A stretch of 41,744 nucleotides of DNA from a virus (taxonomy: Duplodnaviria; Heunggongvirae; Uroviricota; Caudoviricetes), in IMG/VR virus record IMGVR_UViG_2563366971_000005; one strand, 5' to 3'. The notes under the pieces are model-generated. The model was not told where the DNA came from. It saw only the letters and a program-made list of their open reading frames with translations, and did not search any database. Shown here piece by piece: positions 31,905 to 37,108 of this stretch (positions are counted from its first letter, which is position 1; every line of letters starts with the position of its first letter). A program made the position numbers and the translations under genes.

Positions 31905-32279
31905 TCACTTAAATTTCGTCGCACGAATAACGTCAATTCCGTTCTCGCTATATCGAAGAGGGTGCTTACCGTCCCTGAGCAGGACAAAACCTGACATCCC
32001 CTCAGGTAGCTGAGCCAGCTTCATCAATGAACGGTTGCGGGGAGACTTCTTATCGACCTCAATGGCACACTGCTGGCCGTCTGATGATGTAACCAGGCAA
32101 CCAATAAACCCTTTACGACCACCGCTGATGCTGATGCTGATGCTGAAATTGCGTTGCAGGTGGTATCCCTGAGACTTGATTTTTTTCTGCATCACATAAT
32201 CGAAAACAACTTTGTCATCGGAGCGAATGAATTGCTCTTCCAGAAGAGCGATTAAATTTTGCTTCAGGTCTTCACTCAT
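31905..32279 (-). CDS. Hypothetical protein
   Basis: 124-aa ORF in early-right operon; no family recognised. Confidence 0.45.
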   Translation of the reverse strand: MSEDLKQNLIALLEEQFIRSDDKVVFDYVMQKKIKSQGYHLQRNFSISISISGGRKGFIGCLVTSSDGQQCAIEVDKKSPRNRSLMKLAQLPEGMSGFVLLRDGKHPLRYSENGIDVIRATKFK

Positions 32280-32527
32280 ACTTTTTATCCATCTTGTACT
32301 AGCTTTCTGGTACAGCCGTTTTTTCAGGGGTATCCCCCTTTAGATCGAGATCTACCTAACCTATGTACCCGTCTGTTGGAAAAGCCTGTTCCAGTGCTTC
32401 GCACTAACACACGGGCACTCCTCCCCCTCCCCTCCTCTCGTTGAATTTTCTACGTACCCTTTAACTAGTACAAAAATGCAATGAGATTTGGGATTCAGCC
32501 ACCGGACACCTTTAAGCCCGGTACCAA

Positions 32528-32821
32528 TCAGGAGCGCGATTGCGTTCCTGCCAGGGGCGGCTGAGTTGTATACCCCTGTAAAGCTCTGCCCTGATTTCTC
32601 ACAAACAAGCGGAGCCTTGTGTTTGCTTCGTGCCTTGCTCTGTTCTCCTTGCGGAATGAAACAGGCTCAGCGTCAAAAGTGATTTCGTATACCTCCGCAT
32701 ATTTCAGGGCGACCTTCCGTCTCAGTGACGGAGGCAGCCCCTGTAACTGCTGCTGAATCCACTCTTCGTCTGCCTGGCAGTACCTAGATGGCATCTCTGT
32801 CTGAACGTAATTCTGGGACAT
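32528..32821 (-). CDS. Hypothetical protein (cII-position)
   Basis: 97-aa ORF; overlaps upstream ORF by 38 nt, so start may be the internal Met. Confidence 0.4.
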   Translation of the reverse strand: MSQNYVQTEMPSRYCQADEEWIQQQLQGLPPSLRRKVALKYAEVYEITFDAEPVSFRKENRARHEANTRLRLFVRNQGRALQGYTTQPPLAGTQSRS

Positions 32822-33035
32822 ACAAGCCCTTCACCTCTCCCGTGCGCGCTAAGCTTGGATGTGTATATGGAATGTTCGGATCCAGATGGCAGAGAATGGC
32901 AACATCCTCCGGAACGCCCCGCGTTTTCCACTTTCCAACTCCCTGACTACCACGAGGCCTTCCTTTCTTTGGGAACCTGCGGCCAATAGCGGCATTGGTC
33001 TTAAATTGAGTTTTTAATATTTCATAAAGGGTCAT
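32784..33035 (-). CDS. Small basic protein with AT-hook-like KKGRPRG motif in cro-position
   Basis: 83-aa ORF divergent from the repressor gene; weak RBS; no canonical HTH recognised. Confidence 0.4.
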   Translation of the reverse strand: MTLYEILKTQFKTNAAIGRRFPKKGRPRGSQGVGKWKTRGVPEDVAILCHLDPNIPYTHPSLARTGEVKGLYVPELRSDRDAI

Positions 33036-33146
33036 TCTTTAGCCTCACACCGGATACTCTGTTATCCAAGAATGTTAAACACGAGAATCCAAAGTATCAA
33101 GAAATTCTGTTACTTTAGTATCAGCAGCCATGAAAGGAGAAGAAAA
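33036..33146. promoter_or_regulatory. Divergent promoter/operator region (OR-like) with RGTATCA-type repeats
   Basis: ggatact (33053..33059, inverted), aaagtatcaa (33091..33100), ttagtatcag (33115..33124) between divergent genes. Confidence 0.45.
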
Positions 33147-33803
33147 ATGAAATCTTTAGGTGAACGCCTCATCAACGCACGACAAAAAGCTGGGTTAACG
33201 CAAGATGCGTTGGCTAAAAAAGCAGGGGTCACCAGAGTTGCAATCAGTAAAGCCGAGCAAGGCCTTACAAAAAGTTTCAACGGTGACACCCTTTTTAAAG
33301 TCGCAGCTGCACTGCAGTGTTCACCGCAGTGGCTTCAGAACGGAGATGAAAAAGATAAGCATTGGGAAAATAATGTTAAGAGCTGCCCACAGAGAGACAC
33401 AGCACACTCTTACCCTGTAATTAACTGGGTTCAGGCAGGATTATTCGCAACTGCTGGTGATGACTACAACATGTATGATCAGGATAATTGGAGGCATTCT
33501 GTAAAATACGCTGGTGAGAGGGGGTTCTGGCTGGAAGTGCACGGAGACTCAATGACTTCGCCCGTAGGAATAACATTTCCTGAAGGAATGTCGATCCTTG
33601 TCAACCCAGATAAAGAAGTTTTTTCAGGGTGTTACGTCATCGCCAGAAAAAAATCTACCAATGAAGCAACATTCAAAAAATATATTTCTGAAATGGGAAA
33701 GGCGTTTCTAAAGCCCCTTAATCCACAATATCCAATCATAGAAATGGACAATGATTGCGAAATAGTAGGTGTTGTGGTTGATGCCAGGTGGGATATTTTC
33801 TGA
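33147..33803 (+). CDS. CI-like prophage repressor (N-terminal HTH, C-terminal S24 LexA-like peptidase domain)
   Basis: Start at MKSLGERLINARQKAGLTQ (ATG 33147) after AGGAGAAG; HTH_XRE-like N-terminus; GDSM Ser and downstream Lys of S24 autocleavage fold. Confidence 0.85.
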   Translation: MKSLGERLINARQKAGLTQDALAKKAGVTRVAISKAEQGLTKSFNGDTLFKVAAALQCSPQWLQNGDEKDKHWENNVKSCPQRDTAHSYPVINWVQAGLFATAGDDYNMYDQDNWRHSVKYAGERGFWLEVHGDSMTSPVGITFPEGMSILVNPDKEVFSGCYVIARKKSTNEATFKKYISEMGKAFLKPLNPQYPIIEMDNDCEIVGVVVDARWDIF

Positions 33804-33899
33804 CCAGACACAAAAAGAAACCAAAGTATCAAAAATCACTTGCCACACCTTGATACCTTAGTTACCATGAAGCAAAGTTCGTAACTGAGGTATCATCTC
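33804..33899 (+). promoter_or_regulatory. OL-like operator region with RGTATCA repeats and a 14-bp inverted repeat
   Basis: ccaaagtatcaa (33821..33832); inverted repeat gataccttagttac (33852..33865) / gtaactgaggtatc (33881..33894). Confidence 0.4.
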
Positions 33900-34316
33900 A
33901 TGATCAATAAAGCTACAACTCTTGACTGTCTCGAAGAACTGAAAAACCTCGGCAGCCTCATTACACTAATAGCAAAAGCAACACCAGATGCTACGCTCTC
34001 TAGCGATATAGAGTCATGCGCAGGACTGGCATGGGATATGACAAATAGCATATCCAGAAAGCTATCGTCAGCAATGCTTTTACAGAACAAAAATTCTGCA
34101 ATCAACAACAGTCTTCGCACCCAACGCGAAGACTGCGGCTTAACAACAGCCGAACTCGCCAGACTGCTCGATCTCGATGAAGAAATTATCATCCAGTGGG
34201 AGAGCGGAGAGTACGAACCAACCATCAGCATGCTTATCCCTCTGGCTAATGTTCTTGGCTGTGATCCAATGTTGTTATTGACTGATGCTTATAAACAAAA
34301 TCAGGAGGAAGCATAA
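33900..34316 (+). CDS. HTH (XRE-family) DNA-binding protein with unknown N-terminal domain
   Basis: 138-aa ORF; C-terminal GLTTAELARLLDLDEEIIIQWESGEYEP helix-turn-helix. Confidence 0.6.
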   Translation: MINKATTLDCLEELKNLGSLITLIAKATPDATLSSDIESCAGLAWDMTNSISRKLSSAMLLQNKNSAINNSLRTQREDCGLTTAELARLLDLDEEIIIQWESGEYEPTISMLIPLANVLGCDPMLLLTDAYKQNQEEA

Positions 34317-34317
34317 G

Positions 34318-34509
34318 ATGAAAATGTTCAAAGGCCTCACCAACGAACCGGAAACAGCTTTTCATCACATTGCCGTACTGCTTGAAGCGGGGTTAATCAT
34401 TTCGGCTTCCGGTGATGAAGAATGTGATGAACTTTCGGATGATATCTTTTTACTGGCACAACAATACGCCAGAAGCGCATGCGATGCATTTAAGGAGCAA
34501 AGAACATGA
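34318..34509 (+). CDS. Hypothetical small acidic protein
   Basis: 63-aa ORF starting 2 nt after previous stop. Confidence 0.4.
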   Translation: MKMFKGLTNEPETAFHHIAVLLEAGLIISASGDEECDELSDDIFLLAQQYARSACDAFKEQRT

Positions 34510-34697
34510 TAACTCCATTAAATATTCTTGAGGAAGTGGCAGCACAAATAAAAGAGAATACATCCATGCTTGAATTTATATTTAAGAATTCGCCTGATTC
34601 AGGAGAGACAGACGATTATTTATGTTGCCTCATTCGCTCCATGAATAAAACCTGTGAAATGGCTTACGCGTATATCGACACACTGCGCAACGAATAA
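34506..34697 (+). CDS. Hypothetical small protein
   Basis: 63-aa ORF with ATGA overlap on previous stop. Confidence 0.4.
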   Translation: MITPLNILEEVAAQIKENTSMLEFIFKNSPDSGETDDYLCCLIRSMNKTCEMAYAYIDTLRNE

Positions 34698-34779
34698 AGA
34701 AAACTCAATAAACAATCACCCATAAAAACATAACGGCCTCTGGTCGGGAATTTCCACAACCTGAAAATGGTGGTGATGC

Positions 34780-34878
34780 ATGAAAAACAGAAGTGCTTAT
34801 AAAACCGCATTATTAATGGCTAATGCAGGATACTGGTCAGTTGCAATACTGTTTCTCAGGAAAGCATACGGGAAATAA
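34780..34878 (+). CDS. Candidate 32-aa peptide
   Basis: Hand-translated MKNRSAYKTALLMANAGYWSVAILFLRKAYGK; ends 3 nt before next gene; low confidence. Confidence 0.2.
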   Translation: MKNRSAYKTALLMANAGYWSVAILFLRKAYGK

Positions 34879-34881
34879 CAA

Positions 34882-35241
34882 ATGACACATGAACCCATTA
34901 ATACATATCGTCGCCGTATAGCTGTTGCGGCACTCCATCGAATAAAACGTAAAACAGGTGGTAATCTGCTTATTGTTGACCTTCCGGATGGGAACATTAC
35001 GACCATAGAAATAACTGAACAGTTTATAAACCAGTTGCTGTTACGCTTCGAAGGTATTACCCGTGGTGAATTGGGCCGGGTGGAGGGTGAAACCGAAATC
35101 CACACTGCATACCAGAATGCTATCGGGATTAATCAACATACTGAATACCTGACTGAAACCGGAAAGTTAATTATAGACAACCTTTTTCAAGAGGTTATTG
35201 ATTACGCGAAAGAAAAATATATCAGCGGAGGAATTAACTGA
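34882..35241 (+). CDS. Hypothetical protein
   Basis: 119-aa ORF, no family recognised. Confidence 0.4.
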   Translation: MTHEPINTYRRRIAVAALHRIKRKTGGNLLIVDLPDGNITTIEITEQFINQLLLRFEGITRGELGRVEGETEIHTAYQNAIGINQHTEYLTETGKLIIDNLFQEVIDYAKEKYISGGIN

Positions 35242-35456
35242 TGGCTAATTTATCCCCTGTATCTGTTGTGCACGAAAAAGTGCAGATCGTTATGACAATT
35301 GAAAATGGCCAAGTCACAGGTGTCTGCAAAGTCCGCGATGGCGAGCTGATTGCCAGCATGGATACATTCATACGGCTGGCAGAAAGAGCGGGGTATCAGA
35401 TAACAGCACCTGCTCAGGAGGAAACCGGTGGCATTAACAGCAACACGCATTCCTGA
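35241..35456 (+). CDS. Hypothetical protein
   Basis: 71-aa ORF, TGATG overlap with previous gene. Confidence 0.4.
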   Translation: MANLSPVSVVHEKVQIVMTIENGQVTGVCKVRDGELIASMDTFIRLAERAGYQITAPAQEETGGINSNTHS

Positions 35457-35642
35457 GCGGATCCACCGGCAGGCATTGCAGGTCCTGTTGTTGTACCGAT
35501 GCCGACGGATATTTCCGCATCGGATACAGCGCACCGGATATCTCAGTCTGAAGGTTAACCGTCGCTGGCGGCTGTTATCGAAAGACGACGGCCGGAACTG
35601 GGAAGTAATGAGTCATGAACGTTATTCGGGAGAAATAAAGAA

Positions 35643-36035
35643 ATGATCGACAACCGCACCGCCAGCGCCATTGACCAGGCATTACAGAAACATGATACAC
35701 CCGTCGGCCCGTTATTTTTTGTAACACGCCACGGAAGAACAAAAAAATGCCTCACCCGAAAAACGGCAATTCGTTACCTGGCATTCTTTATGACCACCCG
35801 CGCTTTTGAACGTTCAGGATTCCGACAACGCTATCCTGACAAGCGTTTTATCTTCAACAGGAATGAGATATGGAAACGTGGAGAATCAACCACAGAGTAT
35901 ACCCGCGCACACCAGCGAACAATCAGACGACTGCGCAGACTCATCGCCAGGAAACAGTATACAGAAAAATGGTTCAGAAAATATGACACATGGAGCGCCG
36001 GATATTACGAACTGATGGCAACAAAACCATTCTGA
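35643..36035 (+). CDS. Hypothetical basic protein
   Basis: 130-aa Arg/Lys-rich ORF. Confidence 0.4.
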   Translation: MIDNRTASAIDQALQKHDTPVGPLFFVTRHGRTKKCLTRKTAIRYLAFFMTTRAFERSGFRQRYPDKRFIFNRNEIWKRGESTTEYTRAHQRTIRRLRRLIARKQYTEKWFRKYDTWSAGYYELMATKPF

Positions 36036-36095
36036 CGTAAACGAAATTAACCATGACGCAATTAAATAAGGCAAGCCGAATACATCAGGAGGACC

Positions 36096-36284
36096 ATGAA
36101 CATTTATTTCAGAATAGTTATATCACTGGCAATTATCACATGTATTTACGGATTAATCGTTCCGGCCCTCATATCAATGAAGGATACGGTAGCAGTGATT
36201 TCTGGCTTTGCTCTGGCGTGTCTGACCCCGCCCTGCATTTATGCCATTTATAAGGGTCTTTCTTTTTCTAAGGATAAAAGATGA
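36096..36284 (+). CDS. Small two-helix membrane protein coupled to SPFH lipoprotein
   Basis: 62-aa ORF, AGGAGGA upstream, two hydrophobic segments; stop overlaps next start (ATGA). Confidence 0.5.
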   Translation: MNIYFRIVISLAIITCIYGLIVPALISMKDTVAVISGFALACLTPPCIYAIYKGLSFSKDKR

Positions 36285-37108
36285 AAAAATTACTTTTTGC
36301 TTTAGCCCTTGTTCTGCCGACCATTGGCCTTGTCGGTTGCGATCGCGTTGAGCCTGGTAATGTGGGCATCAAAGTAAACAAACTGGGCGACGATAAAGGC
36401 GTCGGTGAAGTGGTCGGTGTTGGGCGCTACTGGACGGGATGGAACACTGAGGTTTACATCTTCCCGACCTTTAAGCAGATGAAGACCTACGATGATCCAT
36501 TCAGTTTCCAGATGAGTGACGGTACAACCATCGGCTATCACATCGGCGTGGCCTACAAAGTTGATCCATCCAAAGTTACCACAGTCTTTCAGACCTACCG
36601 CAAAGGCGTGGACGACATTACCGACACCGACCTGCGCCAGAAGATAGCCGACGCACTCAACCGACTGGCCAGCAAAATGACCACCGACAAATTTATCGAC
36701 GGCGGCAAGTCTGAGCTGCTGGATGCAGCTCTTAAAGACATTCAGGAAGAAATGACGCCCATCGGTATTCAGGTAATGAGCCTCTCATATGTGGGTAAGC
36801 CGGAGTACCCGCCTACTGTTATCGACAGCATTAATGCCAAAGTCACGGCCAACCAGAAAACCCTGCAACGCGAGCAGGAAGTCAAGCAACGCGAAGCAGA
36901 GGCAAACATGCTGCGCGCGGAAGCTGCCGGACAGGCTGATGCGATTCGCACAAAAGCCCAGGCCGAAGCCGACGCTATTCGTTTACGCGGTGAAGCTCTG
37001 CGCCAGAACCCAAACGTTATGGAGCTGGAAGCCATCAACAAGTGGAACGGTACACTGCCGCAATACATGACCAGCGGTGCCAACACACCATTTATTCAGG
37101 TCAAGTAA
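36281..37108 (+). CDS. SPFH/Band 7 (prohibitin-like) lipoprotein
   Basis: 275-aa ORF; lipobox LVGC in MKKLLFALALVLPTIGLVGC; Band-7-like core and C-terminal Ala/Glu-rich coiled coil. Confidence 0.7.
   Translation: MKKLLFALALVLPTIGLVGCDRVEPGNVGIKVNKLGDDKGVGEVVGVGRYWTGWNTEVYIFPTFKQMKTYDDPFSFQMSDGTTIGYHIGVAYKVDPSKVTTVFQTYRKGVDDITDTDLRQKIADALNRLASKMTTDKFIDGGKSELLDAALKDIQEEMTPIGIQVMSLSYVGKPEYPPTVIDSINAKVTANQKTLQREQEVKQREAEANMLRAEAAGQADAIRTKAQAEADAIRLRGEALRQNPNVMELEAINKWNGTLPQYMTSGANTPFIQVK

Follow-up and report, generated by a model that had tools for sequence, protein, structure and literature searches.

A predicted helical hairpin fused to an acidic XRE domain is encoded directly behind the repressor gene in phiP27-like prophages of Escherichia coli

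The stretch of viral DNA analyzed here (the window; 41,744 nucleotides (nt), IMG/VR record IMGVR_UViG_2563366971_000005) is a phiP27-type lambdoid prophage of E. coli, and its immunity region was 96% identical to that of the Stx2e phage phiP27. The gene under study is located at 33900-34316 on the + strand and encodes a protein of 138 amino acids (aa), in which a predicted two-helix hairpin is joined to a C-terminal helix-turn-helix (HTH) domain of the XRE type. A gap of 96 nt separates it from the upstream repressor gene cI, which is also on the + strand. The 138-aa gene corresponds to L10 of phiP27, which is annotated as "hypothetical", and the repressor corresponds to L11. On the + strand, cI and the 138-aa gene are followed by a series of small genes, xis, and int, and the - strand carries the Cro-position gene, a helicase gene, a primase gene, and Q. 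The features of the gene and its control region are listed below.

33900..34316, + strand: coding sequence (CDS) of the 138-aa protein with an ATG start, from the list of open reading frames (ORFs), with Pfam and PHROG matches and a ratio of nonsynonymous to synonymous substitution rates (dN/dS) below 0.25
33900..34097, + strand: N-terminal two-helix hairpin module of type "A" (aa 1-66), from AlphaFold2 and free-standing homologues
34113..34268, + strand: XRE-type HTH_3 domain (aa 72-123; Pfam PF01381) of canonical fold, strongly acidic
33804..33899, + strand: control region between cI and the 138-aa gene that resembles a left operator and promoter (OL/PL), from repeat, promoter, and motif searches and its conservation in a related locus (L006)
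33817-33831, 33851-33865 (inverted), and 33881-33895: putative left operator copies, from motif and repeat searches
33840-33845 and 33863-33868, + strand: promoter-like hexamers, from the promoter scan
33147..33803, + strand: cI-type repressor with HTH_3 and Peptidase_S24 domains, 100% identical to the L11 protein of phiP27
33052-33067, 33085-33099, and 33109-33123: putative operator copies on the right (OR) side, between the cro-like gene and cI, from repeat and motif searches
32784..33035, - strand: Cro-position gene of 83 aa, divergent from cI (phrog_4749)

The 138-aa ORF is a real and conserved gene under purifying selection, and it lies on the + strand at exactly the position where a previous sequence-only reading of the window had placed it. 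The same CDS was annotated in an identical E. coli chromosome (RefSeq WP_001553026.1), a GAGG Shine-Dalgarno sequence was located at 33887-33890, 9 nt 5' of the ATG, and phrog_4739, a family of unknown function, spanned the full length of the protein (E 8.5e-83). The protein database contained 152 homologues, and the dN/dS between relatives was 0.11-0.22 for the N-terminal part and 0.08-0.18 for the HTH part. An antisense ORF of 112 aa (33893-34231, - strand) covers most of the gene and is probably spurious, given the clear selection on the + frame. The segment 33000-36100 was 100% identical to several E. coli chromosomes, and this 3.1-kb region was matched in 325 of 5426 complete E. coli genomes, in 49 of those over at least 80% of its length. 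A scan of species-representative genomes identified no relative. A literature search on L10 of phiP27, the Fels-1 and Sakai locus tags, and genes downstream of cI retrieved no study of the gene or its relatives. The "Bully phage" preprint was rejected as a source on this gene because it deals with Cro and not with the 138-aa protein.

The region between cI and the 138-aa gene shared an operator motif with the cI-cro region. The motif GTWAC-N4-GTATCA occurred without mismatch only at 33109, 33851, and 33881 in the 41.7 kb, and near-copies were detected at 33817 (one mismatch) and 33085 (two mismatches). Three putative operator copies flank cI on each side, as in lambda. The large inverted repeat immediately before the gene, which had been pointed out earlier, consists of the second and third left operators in inverted orientation; its arms (33851-33865 and 33881-33895) are 15 nt each, 93% complementary, and spaced by 15 nt, and the repeat stops 4 nt before the start codon. 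The presence of the same motif on both sides of cI supports the suggestion in the sequence-only reading that the gene lies where lambda has N, that is, as the first gene after an OL/PL-like region. The gene is likewise the first of the early operon that CI is predicted to control; the "leftward" direction given to this operon corresponds to the + strand of the window. A promoter-like site, TTGCCA-17-TACCAT, was identified at 33840-33868, and both of its hexamers were unchanged in the 85%-identical relative L006.

The Shine-Dalgarno sequence at 33887-33890 is located inside the third left operator. The RNA of 33845-33910 was predicted to fold into a hairpin that buries this sequence (-21.6 kcal/mol, z -5.3), whereas the RNA of 33875-33940, which lacks the hairpin, reached -6.4 kcal/mol (z +1.2); burial would thus require a transcript start upstream of 33851. 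No terminator-like site was found between cI and the 138-aa gene in the window. Because the hairpin would form only on transcripts that start upstream and cI is not followed by a terminator, transcripts reading through from cI may be translationally silent, whereas those from the early promoter would be translated. Such a block of read-through translation would resemble the fold-back inhibition in IS10. Strong hairpins were likewise predicted just upstream of the regulator start in loci L003, L004, L006, L015, L017, and L018. With the window included, their energies ranged from -17 to -25 kcal/mol (z -4.6 to -7.7), and 8-10 of 10 bases surrounding the Shine-Dalgarno sequence were paired at the first early gene. 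Among the immunity types that are described below, these hairpins were present in A, D, G, and H and absent from B, C, E, and F; the Shine-Dalgarno hairpin is therefore a recurrent but not a universal design. In two related loci with free hairpin genes, a GC-rich hairpin with a T-run that resembles a terminator was located directly after cI (L101 3864-4000 and L103 3861-4000), whereas 33804-33899 of the window lacked one.

The C-terminal part of the 138-aa protein matched Pfam PF01381 (HTH_3) at aa 72-123 with an E-value of 1.6e-10 and a score of 41.3 bits against a cut-off of 23, covering profile positions 1-52 of 55, which confirms the XRE-type HTH proposed previously. The AlphaFold2 model of the protein, built from a 29-sequence alignment (mean predicted local distance difference test (pLDDT) score of 76), placed HTH helices at 83-89, 94-102, 109-119, and 123-127, following a helix that ends at residue 78, and these form a five-helix fold like that of the lambda repressor. 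Foldseek superposed this domain on the N-terminal domain of P22 c2 with a root mean square deviation of 0.8-0.9 A over 61 residues and a target-normalised TM score of 0.87-0.89; when the full model was compared with the PDB, only the HTH part was matched. The net charge of the HTH was -7 to -9 in all 12 tabulated loci, and the second HTH of the long relatives carried a charge of -3 to -5. The DicA-type model NF007257 of NCBIfam scored 36 bits against a cut-off of 101 and matched aa 64-134 only, and the HTH is C-terminal here, not N-terminal. The "DicA" label in phage phi467 was therefore rejected as unsupported. Short "HTH-only" database entries (P0037, P0119, and others) were annotation variants or fragments and not separate HTH genes. 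A hairpin inside the CDS at 34110-34136 (a perfect 10-bp stem, -17.4 kcal/mol, z -4.2) was also dismissed as an element, since a long stem occurred in only 3 of 101 loci. Its core, TTCGC-N7-GCGAA, is a by-product of the R-T-Q-R-E codons, and synonymous changes break it in other types. It falls at the mosaic joint of the N-terminal module and the HTH and is probably incidental.

The N-terminal part was predicted by AlphaFold2 to form a helix at residues 2-27, a loop, and a helix at residues 31-78, which is followed by the short XRE helices; pLDDT was approximately 90 for aa 11-50. The sequence-only reading had left about 80 N-terminal residues unassigned. The lack of a family assignment stands, with no match in Pfam, NCBIfam, or PADLOC, but the length is about 70 residues and not 80. 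Nor did Pfam, NCBIfam, PADLOC, PHROG, or the fold searches assign the protein clearly to any known non-regulatory family. A search of aa 1-66 against 1.8 billion representative proteins retrieved free-standing proteins of 65-72 aa (P0182-P0184) with 37-42% identity (E 1.2e-6 to 8.7e-4). A further hit, P0181 (1299 aa, nine matching stretches), was discarded as a false positive because it contains a Cys-rich repeat of a different character. The free modules directly followed a cI with 74% identity to that of the window and lay behind the same operator motifs. In locus L101, the free A-type module is followed by an ORF2-like gene (44% identity) and an ORF3-like gene (59% identity), in the same order as in the window. 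In L103, an ORF2-like gene (61% identity) is second, and the later modules had no BLAST match to ORF3. Both loci contained further small helical genes, and neither contained an HTH. A similar array without an HTH was found in Salmonella phage Fels-1. These comparisons show that residues 1-65 constitute an autonomous module, predicted to have two helices, that is separately encoded in related phages, and that the N-terminal part is not merely a domain of the 138-aa protein, since free-standing genes occupy the same slot elsewhere. The dN/dS of the window-type module was 0.16-0.22, compared with 0.03-0.05 for cI, which indicates that the module is under purifying selection and yet evolves four to five times faster than cI. 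The hairpin modules had no match in Pfam, PADLOC, PDB, or BFVD; designed helical repeat proteins, the only solved-structure matches of hairpin profile A2, were rejected as a composition artefact.

The family was compared across 101 loci, which were taken from phage records, assemblies, and 80 viral contigs. In all of these, the gene was located directly after the prophage repressor and on the same strand, and the repressor was of one of two kinds, a CI that includes an S24 peptidase domain or a short HTH repressor of 126-151 aa. The HTH was nearly invariant (approximately 90% identical), was present as one copy or as two in tandem, and was fused to at least eight N-terminal types (A-H) with little or no mutual similarity; the module in the window represents type A. 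Eight repressor clusters (at least 65% identity) each paired with a single N-module cluster, whereas HTH copy number, C-terminal tail, and downstream genes combined freely and independently of the repressor type. In the window, a mosaic joint was detected within the HTH, with phiP27-like DNA up to 34284 and phi467-like DNA from 34116. The synonymous substitution rate (dS) of the N-terminal part was similar to that of cI (0.6-1.8), and that of the HTH was lower (0.13-0.56 in the type-D group). Recombination joins the parts where the HTH begins: the hairpin travels with the repressor type, and the HTH and all that lies downstream of it are reshuffled freely. Physical linkage is sufficient to explain the pairing of N-terminal types with repressor types. 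The repressors of types B and G (L013 2476-2856 and L015 2433-2888) comprise 126-151 aa and contain an HTH only, and because they lack an S24 peptidase domain they would not cleave themselves upon SOS induction, so those phages must be induced otherwise.

Two free-standing genes of the hairpin set directly follow the 138-aa gene in the window.

34318..34509, + strand: ORF2, free-standing hairpin gene of 63 aa with a net charge of -7 (AlphaFold2 hairpin; phrog_4587, function unknown)
34506..34697, + strand: ORF3, free-standing hairpin gene of 63 aa with a net charge of -6 (phrog_6882; also phrog_27579, a 138-position profile, at positions 1-63)

ORF2 starts 2 nt past the stop codon of the 138-aa gene, and the start of ORF3 overlaps the stop of ORF2 (ATGA). 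AlphaFold2 predicted ORF2 to be a hairpin of helices 11-29 and 34-62 with a pLDDT of 90; a fold search with it against BFVD and PDB retrieved nothing below E 0.6, and the nearest shapes were generic hairpins such as ROP variants. ORF2 shared 36% identity with the N-module that is fused in type E regulators, for example P0101 (E 1.3e-8 in a small database). ORF3 shared 33% identity with the fused N-module of the type F regulator P0100 (E 2e-9), and its identity to gene 3 of the L101 array was 59%. Type D was resembled by a 66-aa gene that follows the two-HTH relatives and by the C-terminus of L08 of phiP27. The latter (L002 6901-7266) and its homologues (121-127 aa, in many loci) carry the D-type hairpin C-terminal to an unrelated N-terminal part of 60 aa, which indicates that hairpin modules are fused to partners other than the HTH. 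Profile comparison with hhalign linked the C/E/ORF2 group to D with a probability of 86.6%, and this was the sole supported link between hairpin types. A/B and F/ORF3 aligned in register but not significantly (P 0.014), the A-type module and the ORF2 family gave P 0.22, and no profile relation was found between A/B and C/D/E. The groups {A,B}, {F,ORF3}, and {C,D,E,ORF2} were therefore not joinable by sequence (P 0.014, 0.22, and 0.7). The first impression by eye that the window module is homologous to ORF2 or ORF3 was dropped because these profile comparisons were not significant. The N-terminal part of phrog_4739, phrog_4587, and phrog_6882 each represent a helix-loop-helix of approximately 60-70 aa among the first genes after the prophage repressor. 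This phage group encodes mostly acidic hairpin proteins of approximately 60-70 aa in series directly behind the repressor gene. On the basis of models, these may be treated as one family by shape, size, and position only, and common ancestry of the three sequence groups is not claimed.

The reading that we favor, to which we assign a probability of roughly 40%, is that the 138-aa protein is an immediate-early, CI-controlled fusion of a hairpin and an XRE domain, with a role as regulator or adaptor towards a target common to these phages or to their host. It builds on the position of the gene behind a control region bearing CI operators, on the fused architecture with a hairpin that is autonomous and linked to the immunity type, and on the purifying selection. 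In a lysogen, the repressor bound to three operators would keep the gene off, and in transcripts that read through from cI the ribosome-binding site would additionally be hidden in the inverted-repeat hairpin. Upon derepression or infection, the 138-aa protein would be the first protein produced. The N-terminal hairpin would not be able to bury its hydrophobic stripes as a monomer and may therefore associate with itself or with a partner. The invariant XRE domain would provide a common output on a target shared by the phages or the host, and not on the immunity operators. This output is taken to be regulatory and would be exerted by binding either a common DNA site or a common protein, the latter probably basic.

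Several observations weigh against this reading. The 58-residue HTH domain has a net charge of -9 and an isoelectric point (pI) of 4.1, whereas the repressor HTH domains of the same 12 loci carried +1 to +5 in 11 cases and -1 in one; a divergent Salmonella homologue retained the acidity (-8). The recognition helix begins with D-E-E-I-I-I-Q-W-E (D93-E94-E95), and its acidic residues vary little or not at all. At the corresponding positions of our alignment, the 434 repressor and P22 c2 have polar residues that contact bases in the established structures. No conserved palindrome or inverted repeat was found in the downstream intergenic regions as a candidate site for the HTH, and the control regions of the eight types had no motif in common. 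The acidity of the XRE domain puts its DNA binding in doubt, and sequence-specific binding through helix 3 appears unfavorable given the charge of -9, the D93-E94-E95 residues, and the lack of a conserved candidate site. The hairpin is maintained in related phages without any HTH, so its function is independent of the HTH, and it is the modelled shape that suggests its self-association. The promoter call is also weak, since the promoter scan on its own was at chance level (6 sites found, 4.5 expected), and all sources label family members as hypothetical or generic HTH proteins. What can be concluded is that this phage protein contains an XRE domain, that its modular make-up is unusual, and that the acidity of its HTH is unexplained. 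Of the roles that the sequence-only reading had considered, "second regulator" is supported in part, by the HTH fold and the early position, but opposed by the acidic HTH (-9, pI 4.1) and the lack of a conserved palindrome near the operon. A Cro-like, operator-specific second repressor is excluded, since essentially the same HTH stands behind at least eight repressor types whose control regions share no motif, and this HTH therefore cannot read immunity-specific operators in the manner of Cro or CI; moreover, a separate Cro-like gene is present at 32784-33035 (- strand).

Comparison with known systems placed the logic of the locus nearest to SinR-SinI/AimC-AimX, transcription factor-small ORF (TF-smORF) modules, and acr-aca operons, although it departs from each of them in a defining feature. 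The domain itself resembles the XRE/Cro-CI family (HTH_3; P22 c2, 434) in its above-cut-off Pfam score for aa 72-123 and in its five-helix fold, which superposes on P22 c2. It differs in being C-terminal to an extra hairpin and in being the same across phages with different operators, so that it is not the immunity determinant; furthermore, classical repressor HTH domains carry +4 to +6, in contrast to -9 in the 138-aa protein, whose recognition helix starts with D-E-E. SinR-SinI of Bacillus subtilis and phage AimC-AimX likewise join an XRE HTH to a helical oligomerisation element and have related small helical proteins nearby (PMC3163267; bioRxiv 10.1101/2025.11.23.689978). Here, however, the hairpin is N-terminal instead of C-terminal, there is no sequence similarity, the adjacent modules belong to another family and do not co-vary with it, and free modules also occur without an HTH partner. 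TF-smORF modules combine an XRE-type protein with very small, diverse, homologue-less proteins near lysis-lysogeny control (Silpe et al., 2023; PMC10432266), and their small protein is specific for the cI of its own phage (PMC10432266). In these modules, the smORF is divergent from the transcription factor and is located elsewhere in linear plasmid-like phages, whereas the genes described here are co-directional in one operon, the HTH itself carries the first module, and CI putatively controls the whole unit; the locus therefore does not show the TF-smORF arrangement. In acr-aca operons, too, variable small acidic genes surround a constant HTH and are driven by a strong early promoter (PMC13551039; PMC8633003). 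The inverted repeats that an Aca protein binds lie in its own promoter, whereas here the promoter repeats differ by immunity type while the HTH is constant, and the type A repeats are CI operators. In addition, the HTH is fused and not separate, and no match to defence-related or anti-CRISPR models was found.

Like lambda N, the 138-aa protein is encoded by the first gene past the left operator and promoter, and has an immunity-linked N-terminal part and a shared C-terminal part. On the other hand, it has one Arg in aa 1-70, no arginine-rich motif, no sequence or fold similarity to N, and an HTH instead of a disordered RNA-binding peptide, and thus lacks the hallmarks of an N protein. An Rfam search of 32000-37000 detected no nut-like or other RNA family, the operator inverted repeat being the only leader structure. 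The protein is not a Cro of the lambdoid kind either, since its gene follows cI in the same direction, 32784-33035 (- strand) occupies the Cro slot, and the HTH is common to at least eight immunity types. Cro-position genes in related loci matched PF15943 or P22_Cro. The hairpins are similar to Rop of ColE1 (63 aa) in size (63-67 aa) and in the helix-loop-helix shape, and ROP variants were among the nearest solved folds for ORF2; these matches concern shape only, were not significant (E above 3), and no basic RNA-binding face was evident.

It is also possible, although we hold this more tentatively, that the protein is an early effector and not a transcription regulator. The acidic XRE domain, having lost DNA binding, would then offer a protein-binding or DNA-mimicking surface to a conserved basic host or phage protein, and the hairpins, whether fused or free, would be sister effectors that counter defences or help to take over the host. 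A single constant HTH amid small genes that vary recalls an anti-defence island, and the slot right behind the early promoter allows the earliest possible expression. Every first HTH examined carried -7 to -9, with E85 and D91 invariant and D93, E94, E101, and E106 nearly so, and the searches yielded no conserved candidate for an operator. Small size and acidity (-6 to -7) also characterise the free hairpin proteins, hairpin arrays occur without any HTH, and the cassettes differ between otherwise similar phages. However, the fold is that of a textbook DNA-binding XRE domain, in which Q99, W100, and E101 of the recognition helix are kept, and the tandem duplication of the HTH in many relatives fits a two-part DNA site. 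The order of modules A-2-3 is also conserved over deep divergence, unlike that of fast-turnover anti-defence cassettes, and neither PADLOC, Pfam, nor solved anti-defence proteins provided a match. By comparison, it seems doubtful that the hairpin is an immunity-specific antirepressor or modulator that binds its cognate CI and generates positive feedback once the early promoter fires, analogous to AimX or to the small proteins by which TF-smORF modules inactivate cI. In other phages, small antirepressors that are specific for one repressor have been described (PMC10432266; bioRxiv 10.1101/2025.11.23.689978), and the gene adjoins cI. The pairing of hairpin type with repressor type, strictly one-to-one across the 101 loci and eight repressor clusters, is the sole backing for the antirepressor role proposed earlier. 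That pairing is equally explained by linkage, because there is no conserved DNA between cI and the HTH for recombination and the dS of the module equals that of cI. The module showed no similarity to its cognate repressor (Smith-Waterman mean of 26.2 for cognate and 26.0 for non-cognate pairs), and a gene that is repressed by CI cannot start induction. A family dedicated to binding repressors is also made less likely by the sequence families themselves, since those that some immunity types use as first module occur in other types as free genes downstream.

Still less probable is a circuit of the SinR/SinI type, a principle that is well established (PMC3163267), in which the hairpin would be the oligomerisation domain of the HTH regulator and ORF2 and ORF3 would titrate it through mixed oligomers. 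An HTH and a helical hairpin are indeed combined in one protein, the hairpin-only genes directly downstream have coupled starts and stops, and true homology links the free modules to fused modules found in other members of the family. Within the window, however, the adjacent free modules come from sequence families other than that of the fused hairpin (hhalign P 0.014 for ORF3 and 0.22 for ORF2), and the types of the hairpin and of the neighboring free modules vary independently, contrary to what such a circuit would entail. Arrays of free modules also persist in phages without an HTH protein to titrate. The remaining explanation, a type II antitoxin that is HipB-like or that, as in MqsA, binds the toxin through its N-terminal part and carries the HTH at its C-terminus, is close to refuted. 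The HTH part yielded weak NCBIfam hits of the Y4mF/HipB type (26 bits) and the MqsA type (25 bits), and a ParE-like toxin domain is encoded 1.1 kb downstream. These scores reflect a generic HTH only (TIGR03070, 26.2 bits against a cut-off of 71.65; TIGR03830, 25.4 bits against 61.8), and the CxxC motifs of the MqsA zinc ribbon are absent. The gene has no adjacent toxin gene, its neighbors being cI and acidic hairpin genes, and the ParE-like gene has its own overlapping upstream partner (35241-35456).

The window harbored several other genes outside this set. A 262-aa ADP-ribosyltransferase similar to pertussis toxin S1 and scabin was encoded at 27002-27790 on the - strand (PF02917, E 1.4e-15; PF22596, E 2.7e-8; "scabin-related ADP-ribosyltransferase" in RefSeq). 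This gene lies directly downstream of the Q antiterminator gene (27961-28308, - strand), in the slot where Stx phages carry stx, and is possibly a toxin cargo gene under late-promoter control. The ParE-like toxin domain protein (72 aa, 35428-35646, + strand; PF24732, E 3.3e-17) overlaps by 29 nt with an upstream 71-aa gene (35241-35456, + strand; phrog_340), and the two possibly form a toxin-antitoxin pair within the early operon. Farther downstream, 36096-36284 (+ strand) encodes a 62-aa protein with two hydrophobic stretches that probably span the membrane, and its stop is overlapped by the start of 36281-37108 (+ strand), which encodes an SPFH/Band_7 protein with a lipoprotein-like signal (LVGC). 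The homologue of the latter in phiP27 is called a "putative serine protease", and this gene pair was conserved in most related loci.

The family described here heads the early operon of widespread prophages of E. coli, Shigella, and Salmonella, among them phiP27, many phages that convert their hosts to Stx1 or Stx2 production, and prophages found in bloodstream and meningitis isolates. The gene should not be annotated as DicA, a CII-like protein, or a repressor. Beyond the reading favored here, the hairpin modules may form a new immediate-early family that acts on repressors or early regulators in an immunity-type-specific manner, although we regard this as unlikely. The fused module would then be directed against its own immunity system, the acidic XRE domain would serve as a DNA-mimicking or docking output, and the free modules would be directed against co-resident or competing prophages, because their families serve as the first module in other immunity types. 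If true, this would constitute a modular system of cross-talk or warfare among lambdoid prophages, including Stx phages, in polylysogenic E. coli, and interest in the family would rise sharply if the hairpins prove to act on the repressors of the same or competing prophages. The combination of a portable, immunity-tied hairpin with an invariant acidic HTH add-on turns a "hypothetical HTH protein" into concrete questions regarding the partners of each half and its bearing on induction, Stx phage release, and co-resident prophages.

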